Source of the DNA: a virus
Lineage: Duplodnaviria; Caudoviricetes
Virus record (IMG/VR): IMGVR_UViG_3300005301_000012
Span: 1-51,419 of that record
DNA length: 51,419 bases
Direction: 5' to 3' (one strand)
How positions within the stretch are numbered: the first letter of the stretch is position 1; each line of letters opens with the position of its first letter. The translations under genes and the position numbers were made by a program. The notes under the pieces are model-generated. The model made no database searches, was not told the origin of the DNA, and saw nothing but the letters and a program-made list of their open reading frames with translations. Shown in pieces: positions 44,732 through 51,419 of this stretch.

Positions 44732-45883
44732 TTAGTTCGTTGCGAGCTCGGATGCGATTCGATTGACCTTCTTCGATGGAAAGTAGCGGTCCCGTATGCG
44801 AAGGGATGGCTTTTCAACGAACGAGTAAGTCATGCTCGACAGGAGAAGCGCGCCCGACACGTAGATAGACGCACGATACACATAGCCTCCAAGGTCTGTG
44901 GCGCCACCGAAGACGTGACCGACAAAATAGAACGAAGTCAGGTTCGACAGGTATAGGGAGTACGAAAGCTTCGCGATCCATGCTGCTGGCACTGCGATCG
45001 CCCTCGGCAAAGTTGTCTTGATGCCGAGAAGTAGAATTCCGCACACCCCGAGGGAAGTCATGGTGAACAGGAACAGTTTCACCATGAACCGCTCGCCAAT
45101 CCAGGAGGGCCCCATCAAGACCATATAGATCGAGACCGGCAGAAAAGACAGGAGGCAGATCCCTGTGAGCAGCCGCAAGCCGGTTCGAGAGGCAAGCAGC
45201 TTCCGATATGCCACCGCCAGAAGCACGCCAAAAATCAGCGAGTCGAGCCGAAGCAGTGCGACCTTTCTGAGTTGCTCCTCCCAGTCCGTCGCGTACAGCG
45301 CCGCATGCGCCCTTAGGCCCATGGAAAAGAGCAGGATGGACCCTAGAGCCACTGCGATCGCAAACGAGGTCTTTCTGAATATCGCCCATGCGAACACGAA
45401 CGTGAATGGCAGAAGCACGTAGAACACCTCTTCGACGGAAAGGCTCCACGCTTCGGGAAAGAATAGGGGATGCGGCGCAAGAAGATTTTGAGCAAAAAAC
45501 AGATACTTGATGTCTGGCGGATTGCCCAGAAAAGCGAACCCTGTCATGAAGGACACGGTGTTGAGAGCCAAATAGAAATAATAGTTCGGAACCGTCCTGA
45601 ACCACCTTCTCATCATGAAGTGCAGAATGCCCGACGGGTTGCCGTCGAAGATTTTTGCGACGTCAAGAAATATCGACCCTACCAAGAAGCCGCTAAGACA
45701 GAAAAATATCTCGACCCCGAAGTACCCCGCGAGCTCGATCGATGCGTGCAGGCGGGAACTAGGATTCAGGATTAGGATGAGCGAGTGACAGAGCAGCACG
45801 AGCATAATGGCCAATGAACGACACACGTCGAGCCACTGGTTCCGACTGGCGCGGCTATGCATTTCTGGCTGATTTCCTGTCAT
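44732..45883 (-). CDS. Acyltransferase family 3 (O-acetyltransferase-like); start may be 45862
   Basis: WLDVCRSLAI..V...H, GVEIFFCLSGFL, RRWFRT.P.Y, WSLSVEE.FY, SYSLYL, Y.FVEKP; multiple TM helices. Confidence 0.92.
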   Translation of the reverse strand: MTGNQPEMHSRASRNQWLDVCRSLAIMLVLLCHSLILILNPSSRLHASIELAGYFGVEIFFCLSGFLVGSIFLDVAKIFDGNPSGILHFMMRRWFRTVPNYYFYLALNTVSFMTGFAFLGNPPDIKYLFFAQNLLAPHPLFFPEAWSLSVEEVFYVLLPFTFVFAWAIFRKTSFAIAVALGSILLFSMGLRAHAALYATDWEEQLRKVALLRLDSLIFGVLLAVAYRKLLASRTGLRLLTGICLLSFLPVSIYMVLMGPSWIGERFMVKLFLFTMTSLGVCGILLLGIKTTLPRAIAVPAAWIAKLSYSLYLSNLTSFYFVGHVFGGATDLGGYVYRASIYVSGALLLSSMTYSFVEKPSLRIRDRYFPSKKVNRIASELATN

Positions 45884-46009
45884 CGTCTTGGTTGGTGTGC
45901 ATTTTGGAGATTCGTTGCGGTGGACTCTTTAGGTAACGACCGCGTGGCGCGCAAATTTTGCCATGAATGGGCAACGCGCCGTTAGGAGCGCCGCCGCCGA
46001 GGCTGCAAC

Positions 46010-46741
46010 TTAGTTTGACGTGAGAATCGACTTGACTATGGGGGCCAATACGGCAGCCTCGCGGTCTCCCTTGATTTTGTACAGGGCGTCGTTTGGATGG
46101 ATGCAATCCACCAGCATTGATTGCCAGTTTGGCAAAGAAGCAATGTAGTCGTACTGCTGGATCAGTGTTACGCCCTGCTGCTGCGCGATTTGGCGCATGA
46201 TGTTGACGAAGGCTGGCAAATTTGTATAAATCGGATTGCAAACCGGGTTCGGCTCCTCGAGAATCGGCGTTCGCCCGGTTTGCCTCACCACGGCTATCCA
46301 GTTCACTAAGTCTTGCTCGTACTCGTCCGGCGTTCGAATCCGAGAATCATTGACGGCAAAATCGGCCAATACAAGCTGTGCGTCTAGTTTTGAAAGGCGC
46401 GTTGCAAACGGCTCTGTGTAGTACGGTGGCGCGCCAATGAGCGACGCGTAAGCTTGGGAGCCAGCAGCACCATTGTTAATCACCGATACGCTGGAACCGA
46501 ATTGTGACTGCAGATCAGCTTGCAACACAGCCGGCGGCGGATTTGTTGAAGGTATGCAATGGCCGCTCGCATCTGGTCCCAGGCAACCTTCTATCAGCGA
46601 ATCTCCCTCGGCATCGATGATTGCCGGTTTTGTGGTCATTTGTGCTTGCGCGGCCGGAGTAGAGTTGCCGCCGCCACCGCCGCAGCCACTGCATGCCATT
46701 ACGAACATACCAAGAACCGATACGCACAACCCCTTTGCCAT
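46010..46741 (-). CDS. SGNH/GDSL hydrolase-fold lipoprotein
   Basis: Lipoprotein-type signal ending CSGC; GDSL, NNGAAG, VND, DCIHP blocks. Confidence 0.88.
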   Translation of the reverse strand: MAKGLCVSVLGMFVMACSGCGGGGGNSTPAAQAQMTTKPAIIDAEGDSLIEGCLGPDASGHCIPSTNPPPAVLQADLQSQFGSSVSVINNGAAGSQAYASLIGAPPYYTEPFATRLSKLDAQLVLADFAVNDSRIRTPDEYEQDLVNWIAVVRQTGRTPILEEPNPVCNPIYTNLPAFVNIMRQIAQQQGVTLIQQYDYIASLPNWQSMLVDCIHPNDALYKIKGDREAAVLAPIVKSILTSN

Positions 46742-46791
46742 GTCTGCTCGCAAATTGTTCTTATTCCAACGCGCGATGATACACGGCACGC

Positions 46792-47091
46792 CTACAGCTG
46801 CTTCTCTCCATCGGGCTCCAGGGAGTCGGACGTTCCGTCCAAGTCGATAACCGCGCCGACCTCGCGCATGGTCGCTATAACCCGGTCGATGTCCGCTTGC
46901 GGGAGCGTGACCAGCGCGGCGCCCATGAATAGATTCGCTGGCGGGATGCCCTGCGGTTTGTTCTCGTCTGCATACTCGCGCCAGCGCCGGCTGCTTTTGA
47001 GACCAAGTATGCGGGCCATCTGAGTGCCGGAGTAGCCGAGCCGCTCCTTCCACTGCTTCATTTGTGCGACCGAAGGCGGGCGAAAGAGCAT
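46792..47091 (-). CDS. HTH repressor, KorC-like; start uncertain
   Basis: PPSVAQMKQWKERLGYSGTQMARILGL..RRWREY. Confidence 0.8.
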   Translation of the reverse strand: MLFRPPSVAQMKQWKERLGYSGTQMARILGLKSSRRWREYADENKPQGIPPANLFMGAALVTLPQADIDRVIATMREVGAVIDLDGTSDSLEPDGEKQL

Positions 47092-47189
47092 GTTGAGTTG
47101 ATCCAATACGCGCGAAGGCGCGAAAGCGGTATTTCATGGCGAATTTCCTTTCGGATAGCGGCCGCGCGAGTGCGCTTCCTATGTGGAGC

Positions 47190-47218
47190 AAGATAGGCGG
47201 ATTCCGCCTATGCGTCAA
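47190..47218 (-). promoter_or_regulatory. Moron promoter with a 19-bp palindromic operator
   Basis: TTGACG-17 bp-TATCTT; ATAGGCGGA-T-TCCGCCTAT at 47193-47211. Confidence 0.85.
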
Positions 47219-47231
47219 GTAGTGAATTGAT

Positions 47232-47255
47232 AAACCGCCTTCGGGCGGTTTTTTT
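47232..47255 (+). terminator. Intrinsic terminator upstream of the lysis genes
   Basis: AAACCGCC-TTCG-GGCGGTTT-TTTT. Confidence 0.85.
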
Positions 47256-47290
47256 ACACCCGTAGCGCCGGCGCACAGGAGATCGAGCCG

Positions 47291-47710
47291 ATGTCGGATT
47301 TTTGGAACGAGGGTGTGAAGTCGATCGTCACGGCCCTCGGGTCGATCGGCACCTTCTGGGTCGGCGGCCGTATGTGGCGGCAGATCGATCGCCGCCGCCA
47401 GGCAGAGAGTGAAGGGGACGCCGAGATTGTGAAGGCGGACGCTGCCGGGCAAGTCGAATCGATTGCGCGCTTCGAGCGCTTAGCTACGCTGGCGGAGGAA
47501 AGAGCGGGGCGTGCCGAGCAGCGCGAACTGCTTGCGGTGCAACGTGCCGATCGGGCCGAAGAACTTATGCGAGCCGCGGAACGACGGGCAGAGGAGTCCG
47601 AGCGCCGAGCGCGACAGGCCGAGGCTGAGGTCGAGGAATTGAGGCGCCGCATCGAGAGGCTCGAGATCGCGATCGGCAACCGGAGAGCGACTGATGACGC
47701 AAATTCGTGA
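47291..47710 (+). CDS. Membrane-anchored coiled-coil protein (holin/antiholin candidate)
   Basis: AGGAG RBS; N-terminal hydrophobic helix, then a charged coiled coil. Confidence 0.7.
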   Translation: MSDFWNEGVKSIVTALGSIGTFWVGGRMWRQIDRRRQAESEGDAEIVKADAAGQVESIARFERLATLAEERAGRAEQRELLAVQRADRAEELMRAAERRAEESERRARQAEAEVEELRRRIERLEIAIGNRRATDDANS

Positions 47711-48272
47711 CTGGCGCTGGTGGGTCTTCATCGGCTGCCTGATGGGTGGCTTCAGCGGCATGTTGGCGGCCGGATATTTCCTCGGGCAATGGGGCATGTC
47801 GGTCGAGCGCGCGGACTGGGCTGCTGAACGTGCCGCGTACATCAAGAATGTGCCCGTCGCTCGAGCGGAAGAACGGTCTGCATGCATGCGGGAGTACTCC
47901 GCACAGATCGACGGTCTCAAGGCAACGGCGGCGGCGCGCGATGCTCGCGACAAGCAGACAGCTGCCGACGTCGCCGACATGAAGGCGCTGATGAAGACCA
48001 CAAACGATCTGGCCGCATACACGCTGCGATTCCTTGGGGACCGCGCGCGCGTGAATGATGCGCAAAGTGCGGCGGTTCTGAAGCAATCCCGCGAAGCGGC
48101 GGCAGCAGCGACGGCCGCGCAGAAGACGACCGTTCAGGTCGAGCAGAAGGTGAACGTTGCCGCGGTGAAAGCCGATGAGGCCGCGAGCACGGCAAAGGCC
48201 GTCGACAAGAAACTCGACACCGCAACACATCCGGCGCTTCCCGCCAAACCATGGGCTGGTAGCTACCGCTAG
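47694..48272 (+). CDS. Single-TM Ala-rich coiled-coil protein (i-spanin-like topology)
   Basis: WWVFIGCLMGGFSGMLAAGYFLG followed by a long helical region. Confidence 0.7.
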   Translation: MTQIRDWRWWVFIGCLMGGFSGMLAAGYFLGQWGMSVERADWAAERAAYIKNVPVARAEERSACMREYSAQIDGLKATAAARDARDKQTAADVADMKALMKTTNDLAAYTLRFLGDRARVNDAQSAAVLKQSREAAAAATAAQKTTVQVEQKVNVAAVKADEAASTAKAVDKKLDTATHPALPAKPWAGSYR

Positions 48273-48327
48273 CCAGTCGGTCTTTTCACCCATAACCAGC
48301 GCGCAGCTCTGCGCGCCGGAGATCCCT

Positions 48328-48897
48328 ATGTCCCCCGAAACGCTCGCCGCGGCGCTGCAGATTCCGCTCGCCCGTGCCTCTCTGTGGGCCGATCCGCTGT
48401 CGGCCGCGATGGCGCTGTACTCCATAGACACGCCGGCTCGTCAGGCCGCCTTTCTCGCTCAATGTGGCCACGAGTGCGGTCGCTTCCAGTGGCTTCGCGA
48501 ACTGTGGGGCCCGACGCCGGAACAGAAGCTTTATGAACCATTCACCCCGAAGTCCAAAGCGCTGGGCAATACGACCGCCGGCGACGGTTTCCGATACCGG
48601 GCCGGTGGTCTTCTCGGCATCACCGGCCGGTACAACTTCCGGGTGATGGGCCAGAAGATCGGTGTCGATCTCGAAAACAACCCAGATCAGATCGTGCGCC
48701 CTGATGTCGCGTCGCTCGTCTCGGCGCAGTTCTGGACCGATCGCGATTTCAACGCATACGCCGACGCCGGCGATTTCCTGACGTTGAGCAGGGCCATCAA
48801 CATCGGCAACCCGAACAGCACCGCGACGCCGAACGGCATGGACGATCGCGAACAGCTCTGGACTAGCTGCAAAGCCGCGCTCGGCGTCTCCGACTGA
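48328..48897 (+). CDS. Endolysin, glycoside hydrolase family 19
   Basis: AAFLAQCGHE, LRELWGPT, LGN...GDGFRYR..G...ITGRYN, RAIN. Confidence 0.92.
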   Translation: MSPETLAAALQIPLARASLWADPLSAAMALYSIDTPARQAAFLAQCGHECGRFQWLRELWGPTPEQKLYEPFTPKSKALGNTTAGDGFRYRAGGLLGITGRYNFRVMGQKIGVDLENNPDQIVRPDVASLVSAQFWTDRDFNAYADAGDFLTLSRAINIGNPNSTATPNGMDDREQLWTSCKAALGVSD

Positions 48898-48919
48898 CCG
48901 TTCCTTTTCGATTTTCCCC

Positions 48920-48941
48920 GCCGCCTCGAGCGGCTTTTTTT
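48920..48941 (+). terminator. Intrinsic terminator after the endolysin
   Basis: GCCGC-CTCGA-GCGGC-TTTTTTT. Confidence 0.7.
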
Positions 48942-48956
48942 CGTTTGGAGCTTTCG

Positions 48957-49334
48957 ATGAATTCTGCAACCTGGGTCAAATTTCTGGCTGGCGTTCTCCT
49001 GTTCGCCGCATGGTTCGTACTTGTGCTGATGCGCATCGTTCCGCCGGGCCCGCTCGTCGACGCAATCGGATATGCGCTCGTGGGCCTTGGTATCTACCAC
49101 GCGACGTCGAATAGCTCATCGCCGTCGACGTTGCTCGCGTCGCTGCTCGCGCGTGTAACGCCGGCGCCCGCATCCGGCGAAGCCGTCACAGCGCCGCCGT
49201 CGGGCGCCGCAACTGCACCAGCACAGCCGTCGCCCACCGAACCGGCTTTGTCGGCGGCGCCCCTTACGGTTTCGGCGTCGGGGCCGGTTACGGTCGCTGC
49301 TCCGGCGGTATCGGCGGCCGGGACGCTGCAGTGA
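48957..49334 (+). CDS. Two-TM membrane protein with Pro/Ala tail (holin candidate)
   Basis: FLAGVLLFAAWFVLVLM and LVDAIGYALVGLGIY; GGAG RBS. Confidence 0.75.
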   Translation: MNSATWVKFLAGVLLFAAWFVLVLMRIVPPGPLVDAIGYALVGLGIYHATSNSSSPSTLLASLLARVTPAPASGEAVTAPPSGAATAPAQPSPTEPALSAAPLTVSASGPVTVAAPAVSAAGTLQ

Positions 49335-49663
49335 TTCGCGCGGCGTTCATCGCGCTGCTATGCGCGAGCACGTCCGGCTGCGCCTCGCTTTGGTATGCCG
49401 GCATGGCCCGTTATGACATCGAGCCGATCACGGACTCAAAGGGCATCGCCACCAGCTGCTGCGTGCTGAAGGTTTGGAATGGCAAGCAGATGGCCACCGT
49501 CGACGCGATCTTCACGCGCTCGTCCGCCGGCGATTACAGCATCTCGCTCCGGGAGACCGACGTACAGGCCTTCCAGGGGCAAGCAACCGCCGCAGCCGCG
49601 GCATCCGACGTCGCAGCTGCGGCCGCTTCGGCTGCAGTTACGGCAATCAAAACCTTCAAGTAG
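49331..49663 (+). CDS. Predicted lipoprotein
   Basis: MIRAAFIALLCASTSG-C signal; GTGA-coupled. Confidence 0.7.
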   Translation: MIRAAFIALLCASTSGCASLWYAGMARYDIEPITDSKGIATSCCVLKVWNGKQMATVDAIFTRSSAGDYSISLRETDVQAFQGQATAAAAASDVAAAAASAAVTAIKTFK

Positions 49664-49671
49664 GAAATCCC

Positions 49672-50139
49672 ATGAAACGTCTCTCCATGCTGCTCGCGGC
49701 AGGCCTTGTCGCGTCTCTCACACTGCTTGCGGGTTGCAACGGCACCGTGCCGACGCTTTCCTTCCAGCAGGCGACCGCGCTCGTTTGCGCTGATGCAAAT
49801 ACGGCCGTCCAGATCATGACGGATGACGGTGTGTTCACCGGCGGCGCGCTGAACACACTCAACAATGAGTTCAAACCCGCTCTCGATAAGGTCTGCGCTG
49901 CGGGCGTCACGGTTACCACGCCGAACCTGCAGGCGCTCGCCGACGTCGGGCTGCCCTTGCTGAAGTCGCTCGTGAATGCATCGAACCTGCAACAGCAGGC
50001 GAAGAACTCCGCGAATGCGGCTGTCGATGTGGTGACGCTTGCAGTCAATACGGCGATTGCATTGCAGCCGGCGACGTCGACCACGATGCCAGCTGCGCCG
50101 GCGGCGCCCGCGGCCGCGAGCGGGGCAATCGCATCATGA
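49672..50139 (+). CDS. Predicted lipoprotein
   Basis: MKRLSMLLAAGLVASLTLLAG-C canonical lipobox. Confidence 0.85.
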   Translation: MKRLSMLLAAGLVASLTLLAGCNGTVPTLSFQQATALVCADANTAVQIMTDDGVFTGGALNTLNNEFKPALDKVCAAGVTVTTPNLQALADVGLPLLKSLVNASNLQQQAKNSANAAVDVVTLAVNTAIALQPATSTTMPAAPAAPAAASGAIAS

Positions 50140-50954
50140 GCAAACCGATCCGCGTTGCATTCAGCGGATCGGGCTTCAAGGTGCCGGCACACGTCGGCGC
50201 CTTGCAGGCGATCGCCGATGCCGGCTACGAGCCTATCGAGGTCGCCGGCACGTCGGGCGGCAGCATCTGCGCGGCGCTGTATGCGTCCGGCGTGTCGCTA
50301 TCGGACATGAAGATGCTCGCGCTCACGCACGACTGGTCGAACATGATGTCGTTCAGCCCGCTGTCGGCGCTGCGCATGCGCGGGTTCTGCGACGGCAAGA
50401 CACTGCTCGCGTGGATGCTCGATCACACCGGCGGCAAGACGTTCGCGGATCTGGCGATCGACTTTACGGCCGTGGCGTCGAACGTGGCCAACGAGGGCGC
50501 CTTCGAGTTCTCGCGCGCTGCCACGCCCGATGTCCCGATCGGCCTGGCAGTGCGCTCGTCGACGTCGATTCCCTTCGTGTTCGAACCGGTGGTGATCGCT
50601 GACGCGCTGCTGTCGGACGGGGGAATGGTGAATAACATTCCCGTCGACCGGCTGAAGGTGGACGACGTGCCGCGGCTCGGCGTGCAGCTGGTGAGTATGG
50701 AGTTGCCGCTCAAGCCAAAGGCGCGGCTGCTGCCACACCAGTTCGTCATGCGCCTGCTCGATCTGATGCTGTCGGCATGTGAATCGACGCACGTTAGCGC
50801 GGCGCAGGCCGGCGGCGCGTGCATGGCGTTCGTTGAGACCGGCTATGCCTCGACGCTTGACCGCAACATGCCGATCGAGATCCGGCAGCGATTGTTTGAT
50901 GACGGCTATACCGCGACGAAGACGTCCATCGAGTCTTTTCAGCGGTTGCAGTAA
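50136..50954 (+). CDS. Patatin-like phospholipase
   Basis: AFSGSG oxyanion loop, HVGAL, GTSGG nucleophile, DGG catalytic Asp, NNIP. Confidence 0.92.
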   Translation: MSKPIRVAFSGSGFKVPAHVGALQAIADAGYEPIEVAGTSGGSICAALYASGVSLSDMKMLALTHDWSNMMSFSPLSALRMRGFCDGKTLLAWMLDHTGGKTFADLAIDFTAVASNVANEGAFEFSRAATPDVPIGLAVRSSTSIPFVFEPVVIADALLSDGGMVNNIPVDRLKVDDVPRLGVQLVSMELPLKPKARLLPHQFVMRLLDLMLSACESTHVSAAQAGGACMAFVETGYASTLDRNMPIEIRQRLFDDGYTATKTSIESFQRLQ

Positions 50955-51026
50955 GCTATTCGGGCAGCGCGAACAGCCGACGGTGCTCTGCCTTAACGGC
51001 GGCCGTCGGCGCTGCGACCAGTCAAT

Positions 51027-51419
51027 CTATCTCCGCCGTTGGTGAGCCCGGGCGATCTGGTAGGCCGCGCGGTCGGCCGGGTCGTCCGGATCAAAGTCGA
51101 AGGCGGCCGCGCCATCGATCGATTGCCCCGGCTCGCGGTATCGCCCTCCTTTCCCTCCGATTGGGCCGACGCGGAACATTTCCGATTCGATCGCCGAGCA
51201 AGCGTCCCGAAGCGGCGCGGCCTCGCCTGTCAATCGGCCGAACTCGGAGCGTTCCGCCGCACGGGTGGCTTTCGCGAGAAGCTTGTTCAGGTGCGCCAAT
51301 AGCTCGCGCTGGTGCTGAACCTCGAGGATCAGCCGCCAGACATCGCCGTTTTCTTTGTACAGCCGATACCACTCGCGCAGCTCTGCGAGTGTGGGAGGGA
51401 TGAAGGGCGGTAGAGTCAC
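51027..51419 (-). CDS. Hypothetical protein at the prophage right end
   Basis: PPTLAELREWY..DVWRLILEV; start lies at the window edge. Confidence 0.7.
   Translation of the reverse strand: MTLPPFIPPTLAELREWYRLYKENGDVWRLILEVQHQRELLAHLNKLLAKATRAAERSEFGRLTGEAAPLRDACSAIESEMFRVGPIGGKGGRYREPGQSIDGAAAFDFDPDDPADRAAYQIARAHQRRR

Follow-up and report, generated by a model that had tools for sequence, protein, structure and literature searches.

The window analysed here, that is, the whole 51,419 bp stretch of DNA in the IMG/VR record IMGVR_UViG_3300005301_000012, is a complete provirus record of a tailed virus (Caudoviricetes), with the integrase at the left end, the early genes next to it and, at the right end, a plus-strand block (47291-50954) whose genes have close relatives in Paraburkholderia genomes. 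Our subject is the last gene of this block, which encodes a patatin-like phospholipase, and its association with the genes upstream. An original prediction, made from the letters of the sequence, had described this patatin as coupled to lysis-region membrane genes, in a four-gene unit that might be an enzymatic route to membrane disruption or, alternatively, a released toxin with lipoprotein immunity. The lysis block comprises the following genes and features.

47291..47710, plus strand: p139, an open reading frame and the first gene of the lysis block, with a weak N-terminal hydrophobic segment and a coiled-coil-like charged rest
47694..48272, plus strand: p192, with a single N-terminal transmembrane (TM) helix, a long charged and helical rest and a conserved C-terminal LPAKPW
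48328..48897, plus strand: GH19-type endolysin without a signal or signal-arrest-release (SAR) segment (phrog_181, E=7.7e-49)
48920..48941, plus strand: short GC hairpin followed by T7, weakly terminator-like, between the endolysin and the TM gene
48957..49334, plus strand: small membrane protein (TM129 family), holin-like, with two hydrophobic helices and an Ala/Pro-rich tail
49331..49663, plus strand: Lpp110, a probable lipoprotein with an atypical lipobox (STSGC) and a conserved SCCV motif; its start forms a GTGA overlap with the TM gene
49672..50139, plus strand: Lpp155, a lipoprotein of 155 amino acids (aa) with a good lipobox (LLAGC), two further Cys, a helical-looking core and an Ala/Pro/Ser/Thr-rich tail
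50136..50954, plus strand: patatin-like phospholipase (PF01734), 272 aa, signal-less, with a Ser40-Asp161 dyad, the last gene of the lysis block

The TM protein and the two lipoproteins that had been placed upstream of the patatin were all recovered, with the TM129 gene starting probably at ATG 48957, the coordinate originally given, behind a GGAG located 6 nt upstream; relatives of this protein begin MNSATW or MNAW.

Patatins are recognized by a nucleophilic Ser in a G-x-S-x-G motif, an Asp in D-G-[AG] and an N-terminal Gly-rich oxyanion loop of the G-G-x-[KR]-G type. The product of the last gene matches the Pfam family PF01734 over residues 8-172 (E=4.5e-25, 89.4 bits against a cut-off of 27.7) and contains the motifs G11-S-G-F-K-V, G38-T-S40-G-G and D161-G-G; the loop S10-G11-S12-G13-F14-K15 is a variant form of the oxyanion loop, with S10, G11, S12, G13 and F14 invariant. 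Ser40, Asp161 and the Gly loop are invariant in all 19 aligned orthologues (47-86% identity), so that, in agreement with the original prediction, the patatin appears to be catalytically intact and is predicted to possess lipid acyl hydrolase activity. Also as predicted, no signal peptide was detected in the patatin: the catalytic Gly loop begins at residue 10, which leaves no room for one, and the N-terminal hydrophobicity is far under that of the lipoprotein controls.

Among solved structures, the closest by sequence is the patatin domain of PlpD (E=1.1e-27, PDB), and the solved relatives nearby include PlpD, VipD and ExoU, with matches that cover parts of chains of 314-711 aa. The phage protein is a bare catalytic domain of 272 aa without the targeting domains of ExoU or VipD, matching only parts of their chains of 550-710 aa. 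Among the NCBIfam equivalogs, all scores are far below the cut-offs (VpdC, 61.7 against 1000; RssA, 47.6 against 272), and only the generic patatin assignment is left. Five of 50,697 deposited phage records contain a match to the patatin protein, all at less than 31% identity, and no DNA near-identical to 47000-51419 was found in deposited phages. No usable PHROG matches were found for the patatin, Lpp155, Lpp110, the TM protein, p139 or p192.

A moron is an autonomous cargo gene of a prophage, with its own promoter and terminator and a composition unlike that of its neighbours. The patatin gene differs from this description at several points. Its start (50136) lies inside Lpp155, whose stop codon occupies 50137-50139 (the ATGA overlap noted in the original prediction, which can be read directly in the sequence); no sigma-70-like site was found on the plus strand of 46700-51419; and its GC content (0.64) and codon score (0.254 per codon) are like those of the structural genes, as had been predicted, in contrast to the acyltransferase and GDSL morons of the same provirus, with a codon score of 0.13 and a GC content of 0.53-0.54. 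The assignment of the patatin to the late operon fared less well. The core-like composition and the lack of a promoter-like site of its own stand, but the lysis block is separated from the tail genes by minus-strand morons (44732-47106) and is therefore a unit of its own rather than a simple continuation of the structural late operon.

To survey relatives, we assembled 28 patatin loci (L002-L029), 18 from IMG/VR and 10 from species genomes, whose patatins are orthologues at 52-90% identity. Genes were predicted by means of a codon model built from the structural genes of the window, and the products were clustered. The patatin was called in 28 of the 28 loci and, wherever upstream sequence is present, is the last plus-strand gene after a lysis-type cassette. 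In one locus (L016), the patatin is at the contig start, leaving 27 loci with upstream context. In 18 of these, the gene directly upstream belongs to the Lpp155 family; in 3, it encodes another lipoprotein, and in 4, a non-lipoprotein with a similar Ala/Pro tail. The endolysin families upstream of the patatin differ between loci, so that the cassette is a mosaic whose terminal end is kept. An integrase is located downstream of the patatin, on the opposite strand, in three loci (L005, L010 and L012); the slot hence adjoins attP in the excised phage.

Some of the enzymes are broken. The patatin is frameshifted in L018:6001-6796 and G120:C1:1408647-1409442, and truncated in one of two copies at G007:C4:629602-630102; one long lipase of the kind described below is truncated in L054:4447-4947. 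Decay of this kind, seen in some prophages, is consistent with the lysogen having no need of the gene.

Turning the search around, we compared a profile of 13 Lpp155 sequences with 213 Paraburkholderia species genomes and found the Lpp155 family at 70 places (E<=2.4e-15) in 61 genomes. The patatin (E<=1e-40) is present at 25 places in 24 genomes, and 24 of the 25 abut an Lpp155 match; the remaining one is preceded by a short lipoprotein that clusters with the Lpp155 family. The predicted linkage of the patatin to lysis-region membrane genes thus holds across these genomes. The slot behind Lpp155 is not reserved for patatins: the next same-strand gene encodes a patatin at 24 of the 70 places. 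The other 46 were all inspected; a GHSLG-motif hydrolase follows at 31 of them, a DUF1353 protein at 12 and another protein at 2 (an unknown 150-aa protein and one weakly matching permuted papain-like amidases), with no called gene at the last one. Altogether, a member of a lipolytic family occupies 67 of the 70 places.

The GHSLG hydrolases come in two lengths. All 11 short ones score above the cut-off of Pfam Lipase_3 and match phrog_21992, annotated as 'esterase/lipase'. The 20 long ones, which are grouped with the short ones by BLAST clustering, include 2 above the Lipase_3 cut-off and 4 more with E<=0.001, and keep the GHSLG motif in 18 cases. The DUF1353 proteins in the slot keep H-D-x13-D in 12 of 12 cases; one member of this family, TtaP, has been shown to act as a phospholipase A2, with H70, D71 and D85 as its catalytic residues (PMC11525133). 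The lipolytic enzyme of the module appears to be drawn from at least three unrelated folds: patatin, class-3/GHSLG lipase and DUF1353 phospholipase A2.

Regardless of the enzyme, its start and the stop of Lpp155 overlap at 55 of 63 loci (4 nt at 40 of them, 1 nt at 15), and none of the enzyme families of the slot has a signal-like N-terminus, unlike Lpp155. In four loci (L059:4465-4773, L072:3447-3758, L081:3459-3830 and L077:2756-3013), Lpp155 and the lipase are separated by a small inserted gene, and only there is the overlap broken by an insertion. The L059 insert matches DUF6527 (E=6.2e-6), those of L072 and L081 cluster together, and the L077 insert, unrelated to the others, is a singleton.

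We built a maximum-likelihood tree from 61 distinct Lpp155 sequences and labelled it by enzyme type. The label changes 29 times on this tree, against a minimum of 4 and a mean of 35.1 for shuffled labels, with 3 of 200 shuffles as low. Several well-supported sister pairs of Lpp155 are followed by different enzymes, namely L005 (patatin) and L064 (lipase), L009 and L052, L025 and L067, and L022 and L050. Given the 29 changes, the enzymes seem to behave as interchangeable cassettes that are not co-inherited with Lpp155, which argues for their functional equivalence in the slot. Conversely, because sister lipoproteins carry different enzyme families, the tree argues against a cognate toxin-immunity or an enzyme-specific chaperone relation of Lpp155.

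A gene that may contribute to this mosaic exchange is found in 27 of the 66 loci that carry the module. It resembles HNH endonucleases (phrog_8048, E=1.7e-27) and is placed within the cassette after the endolysin and before the small TM gene (for example, L050:3248-3730, gp45 of Burkholderia phage BgManors32 and gp55 of Ralstonia phage Raharianne). A homing-type nuclease of this kind could drive exchange in the lysis region.

The constant member of the pair, Lpp155, has a recognizable lipobox in 63 of 64 sequences (by pattern match); the lipobox Cys22 as well as Cys39 and Cys75 are invariant in 47 sequences, and exactly two further Cys are present in 60 of 63. About two-thirds of the last 30 residues are Ala, Pro, Ser or Thr. 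Under the sorting rule established for E. coli, a lipoprotein without Asp at position +2 is sorted to the outer membrane; Asp is present at +2 in none of the 63 sequences, which points to anchoring of Lpp155 in the outer membrane. No relatives of Lpp155 were found in Pfam, PHROGs, NCBIfam, PADLOC or PDB, where the sole profile match is that of the signal peptide, resembling that of BamD, and the ESM Atlas contains only unnamed clusters.

Upstream of the lipoprotein, the module is embedded in what looks like a lysis cassette. A recognized endolysin, from one of several families, is encoded upstream of Lpp155 in 48 of the 66 module loci, and a small TM gene lies within three genes upstream of Lpp155 in 59 of the 66. 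The gene adjacent to the lipoproteins encodes a two-helix small TM protein with a short Ala/Pro tail, and a small lipoprotein, either of the Lpp110 type or a related one of 62-72 aa, is present in 25 loci. The co-orientation and adjacency of the enzyme slot with holin-like and endolysin genes are conserved across the relatives, as is characteristic of lysis cassettes. The C-terminus of Lpp110 contains an Ala-rich, mildly hydrophobic stretch of about 22 residues with one Asp, which faintly recalls unimolecular spanins; the shorter relatives end in a conserved GARWRF instead.

The cassette is also found in plaque-forming phages. In Burkholderia phage BgManors32 (gp47-gp42) and Ralstonia phage Raharianne (gp53-gp58), the lipase gene overlaps the gene of an Lpp155-family lipoprotein. 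The order in BgManors32 is a hypothetical membrane protein, a 'chitinase' (the GH19 endolysin), an 'HNH endonuclease', a small hypothetical protein, a 162-aa protein and an 'esterase/lipase', the last two overlapping by 4 nt, and the same order is seen in Raharianne and in Shewanella phage vB_Sb_QDWS. In BgManors32 and Raharianne, the proteins of 151-162 aa are lipoproteins that share with Lpp155 both conserved Cys residues and the Ala/Pro tail. A lipase query matches the Ralstonia phages Raharianne, Hyacinthe and Albius as well as vB_Sb_QDWS. The linkage of lipoprotein and lipase is therefore more general than one phage, extending over Paraburkholderia prophages and Burkholderia and Ralstonia phages. 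The record of vB_Sb_QDWS (OK094664.1) has the same length (47,902 bp) and identical matches as OP650936.1, 'Hujiaoplasma phage zrk29-1'; both carry a Burkholderiaceae-type cassette, with a lipase 56% identical to a Paraburkholderia one. It seems that one sequence has been filed under two hosts, with at least one host assignment doubtful.

Taken together, the gene order, the overlaps, the intact catalytic residues, the absence of signal peptides, the slot census and the enzyme shuffling lead us to propose that the patatin is a lysis-time enzyme acting on lipids of the host envelope, a proposal that we regard as evenly balanced. Under this scenario, the patatin gene, at the end of the lysis block, would be transcribed together with those of the holin-like protein, the endolysin and the lipoproteins, and its product, being signal-less, would stay confined to the cytoplasm until the holin opens the inner membrane. 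From established lysis biology, an endolysin without a signal or SAR segment has to be released by a hole-forming holin, and soluble proteins of 14-30 kDa made simultaneously would also be expected to pass the hole. The patatin would enter the periplasm along with the endolysin and hydrolyse envelope phospholipids to lysolipids and free fatty acids, weakening the membranes. The most likely target would be the outer membrane at its inner leaflet, the expected site of the co-translated Lpp155, which might serve as an anchor or partner of the enzyme; in related phages, a class-3/GHSLG lipase or a DUF1353 protein (a TtaP-type phospholipase A2) would act from the identical position behind the Lpp155 family. 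That the enzyme requires the lipoprotein or the periplasmic milieu, so that the inner membrane is spared before lysis, is pure conjecture. The enzymatic route to membrane disruption suggested in the original prediction thus gains from the conserved linkage and from the occupation of the slot by other lipolytic families, while its function continues to be a matter of inference.

In Gram-negative bacteria, the outer-membrane step of lysis is generally attributed to spanins, apart from rare exceptions that use peptides. A more specific version of our proposal, which we advance tentatively and consider somewhat less probable than not, is that the module of the two-helix membrane protein, Lpp155 and the signal-less lipolytic enzyme carries out this step in place of spanins. 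Like the module, spanins of the Rz/Rz1 type are distal envelope proteins of the lysis cassette, one of them an outer-membrane lipoprotein, that perform the final step of Gram-negative lysis; they act by membrane fusion, without enzymatic activity. As an o-spanin candidate, Lpp155 has the lipobox and lacks Asp at +2, but it is larger than typical o-spanins, with a helical-looking core and two conserved Cys, and most loci have no adjacent coiled-coil i-spanin. By a crude detection that was partly done by eye, and with only 3 kb of upstream sequence in 27 loci, an i-spanin-like upstream gene (one N-terminal helix and a charged rest) is present in 16 of the 66 module loci, in the form of p192 and its neighbour or of a 98-aa protein, and is never adjacent to Lpp155. 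A six-frame lipobox scan of the whole window, nested starts included, yielded only Lpp110, Lpp155 and a frame antisense to the GDSL gene, and the same scan of the whole Raharianne genome yielded only gp57 and one antisense frame; none of the 75 annotated features of Raharianne is named a spanin.

Cassettes without the module provide a comparison. Among endolysin places, 6 of 24 with GH19 and 10 of 26 with a T4-lysozyme-type enzyme lack a nearby Lpp155 match, including one with a divergent module and one with a remnant. In two module-free cassettes (L105 and L108), there is a classical pair, a membrane-anchored coiled-coil gene overlapping a gene for a small Pro-rich lipoprotein; L111 has the lipoprotein, L113 and L114 have the anchored gene, and none of the five has a lipase. 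Rz/Rz1-like pairs thus take the place after the endolysin in related module-free cassettes (L105, L108, L111), which fits mutual replacement of the module and spanins, in a small sample with calls made partly by eye.

Transcript data are limited to the aquatic metatranscriptome X9, in which eight contigs with at least 99% identity fall on the sheath, tape measure and baseplate genes, on the region of p104 and p139, on the junction of Lpp155 with the patatin (49959-50205) and on the patatin itself (50632-50828). These contigs would fit lytic transcription, with Lpp155 and the patatin on one RNA. The sequencing runs X1-X3 look like DNA, with even cover, and are uninformative on expression.

Several observations weigh against the proposed lytic role. 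The single N-terminal helix and charged rest of p192, which is present in 12 of the 66 module loci, fit a crude i-spanin profile, and p192 may be either i-spanin-like or T-holin-like; p192 and Lpp110 could be the spanins of this phage, so that the lipase may be dispensable. Overlaps of 4 nt are common in the phage (17 of 65 same-strand neighbour pairs), and the ATGA overlap therefore shows operon packing, not a special tie. The terminator-like hairpin at 48920-48941 separates the endolysin from the four-gene unit and, weak as it is, makes it conceivable that the entire unit is a moron; the hairpin is conserved in L003 and L018, not in L020, and its fold is no better than that of shuffled sequences (z -0.97). 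The X9 contigs carry neither level nor strand, and DNA carry-over is possible. The slot is located at the prophage edge, beside att/int, the classic place for cargo genes, and all the carriers found are temperate or of unknown lifestyle: a lifestyle scan for integrases (PF00589) gave no match in Raharianne, which does encode a 'transposase', and a match below threshold in BgManors32, which also encodes an excisionase.

The enzyme assignments, too, leave room for doubt. The long GHSLG family is tied to Lipase_3 only weakly. DUF1353 is called a tail assembly chaperone by PHROGs (phrog_1158) and RefSeq, and lies near tail genes in many phages, so that not every DUF1353 protein need be a lipase. 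Furthermore, TtaP itself gave no secretion or envelope-integrity phenotype (PMC11525133). DUF1353 proteins (for example, L062:4438-4818) are encoded in 121 phage records, and the only tested member, TtaP, is a phospholipase A2; the 'tail assembly chaperone' label may have been assigned mistakenly on the basis of position, or the proteins may serve two different purposes.

An unlikely alternative, to which several of these points lend some weight, is that the enzyme is cargo, that is, a moron product released by lysis, in the way that late-operon toxins of other prophages are released, and an exoenzyme or toxin that acts on nutrients or on other organisms (competitors, predators, or plant or fungal hosts) to the benefit of surviving lysogens, with the lipoprotein playing a separate role. 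The terminal position beside att/int, the hairpin ahead of the four-gene unit, the temperate or unknown lifestyles of the carriers, and the presence of the secreted or injected lipases PlpD, VipD and ExoU among the nearest solved relatives are all compatible with cargo, and Ronning et al. 2010 (PMC2920897) list prophage patatins in Burkholderia as morons with a possible virulence role. Against this stand the core-like composition of the patatin, unlike that of the true morons nearby, its start inside the upstream gene with no promoter-like site, and the bare catalytic domain devoid of ExoU- or VipD-type targeting domains. Moreover, a cargo slot should vary in function, yet 67 of 70 places are occupied by lipolytic families, with overlap of the same lipoprotein family in 55 of 63.

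The evidence for lysis-time production applies equally to an enzyme that works at or after lysis, destroying receptor-bearing membrane debris and vesicles to which progeny would otherwise be lost by adsorption, or finishing the killing and emptying of the cell. If p192 and Lpp110 are spanins, this phage would have no need of another outer-membrane opener. We nevertheless consider this option improbable: it leaves the constant pairing with an envelope lipoprotein unexplained, and 50 of the 66 module-bearing cassettes lack an i-spanin-like gene.

The immunity proteins of lipase effectors are periplasmic lipoproteins, and a gene for a periplasmic lipoprotein directly adjoins the phospholipase gene here, so that the lipase could be viewed as an antibacterial phospholipase like the type VI Tle effectors, with Lpp155 as its periplasmic immunity protein. 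This is the released toxin of the original prediction, and as a cognate pair it is disfavoured, to the point of being very improbable in our judgement. One lipoprotein family accompanies three to four unrelated enzyme families, including patatin, class-3/GHSLG lipases and DUF1353, with 29 changes on the tree where 4 would be the minimum, and lipoproteins that are nearly identical are followed by different enzymes; the enzyme has neither a signal peptide nor a delivery domain; and a recognized endolysin and the small TM gene are encoded upstream in most loci. No secretion-system gene was noted in the gene lists of the loci, although none was searched for.

The least probable alternative, which we consider hardly credible, is a prophage-borne defence in which the patatin acts in the lysogen as an abortive-infection effector, like CapV of the cyclic oligonucleotide-based antiphage signalling system (CBASS): patatins are CBASS effectors, and there are weak matches to the phospholipase effector model of PADLOC (E=0.0044, 14.4 bits, the only PADLOC match) and to a cUMP-AMP-activated phospholipase in PDB (E=6.9e-5), but these are at the level of the shared fold, no CD-NTase/cyclase or sensor gene was found among the neighbours, a periplasmic lipoprotein cannot directly regulate a cytoplasmic enzyme, and other occupants of the slot have no known role as effectors of defence.

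With the lytic role as the preferred reading, the patatin can be compared with known systems. CapV, ExoU, VipD and PlpD share with it the patatin fold and the Ser-Asp dyad, but the phage protein has no nucleotide-sensing context, type III/IV signals, chaperone or autotransporter domain. The nearest system in logic is LysB of mycobacteriophages, a lipolytic serine hydrolase encoded beside the holin and endolysin that performs a third lysis step on the outer lipid barrier (PMC5707550, PMC8309991). LysB differs in being a cutinase-like alpha/beta hydrolase that acts on a mycomembrane linkage of Actinobacteria, is not homologous to the patatin and has no partner lipoprotein, whereas the hosts of the Lpp155 module are Gram-negative, where spanins are the known solution.

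In terms of enzyme family, the closest case is Wolbachia phage WO, a temperate phage with a patatin beside a small holin-like membrane protein, for which a lytic cassette has been proposed (PMC9203015). The WO patatin, located beside ankyrin genes upstream of the tail module, is proposed to substitute for the endolysin in a host with no detectable peptidoglycan. The Paraburkholderia patatin, by comparison, is accompanied by an endolysin, stands behind a lipoprotein and can be exchanged for other lipases; both cases are proposals only.

The typhoid toxin islet combines TtaP, a small signal-less phospholipase, with TtsA, a phage-derived muramidase, and the authors of PMC11525133 discuss perturbation of the outer membrane. 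It is a toxin-release islet, not a phage, and the fold of TtaP differs from that of patatin; by analogy, TtaP beside TtsA looks like a domesticated piece of the same idea. The combination of lipoprotein and phospholipase has its nearest parallel in colicin release, where a small lipoprotein encoded by the last gene of an SOS-induced operon causes quasi-lysis with activation of the outer-membrane phospholipase (PMC9517006). In that case the enzyme is the beta-barrel of the host, OMPLA (outer-membrane phospholipase A), and the lipoprotein is about 30 residues long, whereas here a soluble lipase is supplied by the phage, and the sequence of Lpp155 is unrelated to that of the colicin lipoprotein.

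No published lipoprotein-lipase module in lysis cassettes of Gram-negative phages was found in the openly accessible full-text literature (main texts). The original claim of an undescribed route holds to this extent; LysB, the phage WO proposal and the Burkholderia patatin morons were already known. If the more specific proposal is correct, temperate phages of Burkholderiaceae would breach the outer membrane enzymatically once holin and endolysin have done their part, in a Gram-negative counterpart of LysB and a third way beside spanins and disruptin-type peptides. The conserved module would add such an enzymatic solution because unrelated lipases interchange in it and most carrier cassettes are without a recognizable spanin pair. 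It would also suggest a function for prophage patatins, for the esterase/lipase genes of Burkholderia and Ralstonia phages and for the DUF1353 'tail assembly chaperones', provide a rationale for the placement of TtaP beside the muramidase of the typhoid toxin islet, and make the slot enzymes candidate outer-membrane-active partners for endolysins.

The remaining genes of the lysis block and the surrounding parts of the provirus can be described briefly. For p139, no matches were found in Pfam, PHROG, NCBIfam or PADLOC, and the protein is conserved in L003, L018 and L020. The endolysin matches Pfam Glyco_hydro_19 with E=4.3e-5, under the cut-off. Outside the block, the following features were identified.

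After the early genes, plus strand: terminase, portal, protease, capsid, sheath, tape measure, baseplate and tail fibre genes
44732-46756, minus strand: acyltransferase and GDSL lipoprotein block of low GC content
46792..47106, minus strand: p104, a small conserved protein encoded divergently from the lysis block, a possible regulator (phrog_20491, E=1.9e-37)
51027..51419, minus strand: convergent gene at the provirus edge (phrog_17852, E=1e-12)

The block at 44732-46756, directly after the tail fibre genes, encodes an O-acetyltransferase of the Acyl_transf_3 family (383 aa) and a GDSL-family lipoprotein esterase, with a GC content of 0.53-0.54 against 0.62, and looks like a moron for conversion of surface polysaccharide (serotype). 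The equivalent position is occupied by a GDSL gene in many related loci and, as gp51, in Ralstonia phage Raharianne.

The p104 protein has a weak match to a transcription-regulator PHROG and weak matches of the helix-turn-helix type. Because it precedes the lysis block in many relatives, p104 may regulate the block. The spacer between the divergent p104 and first lysis genes is 184 bp (in 46792-47290), and the sole sigma-70-like site of the region faces p104.

A relative of the convergent gene at 51027..51419 also adjoins the enzyme slot in L018, L020 and L060. Between this gene and the patatin, an 8-bp inverted repeat (GCCGACGG ... CCGTCGGC, 50976-51011) was spotted by eye; it has no T run and is absent from the list of the terminator scan, and may be a two-way terminator.

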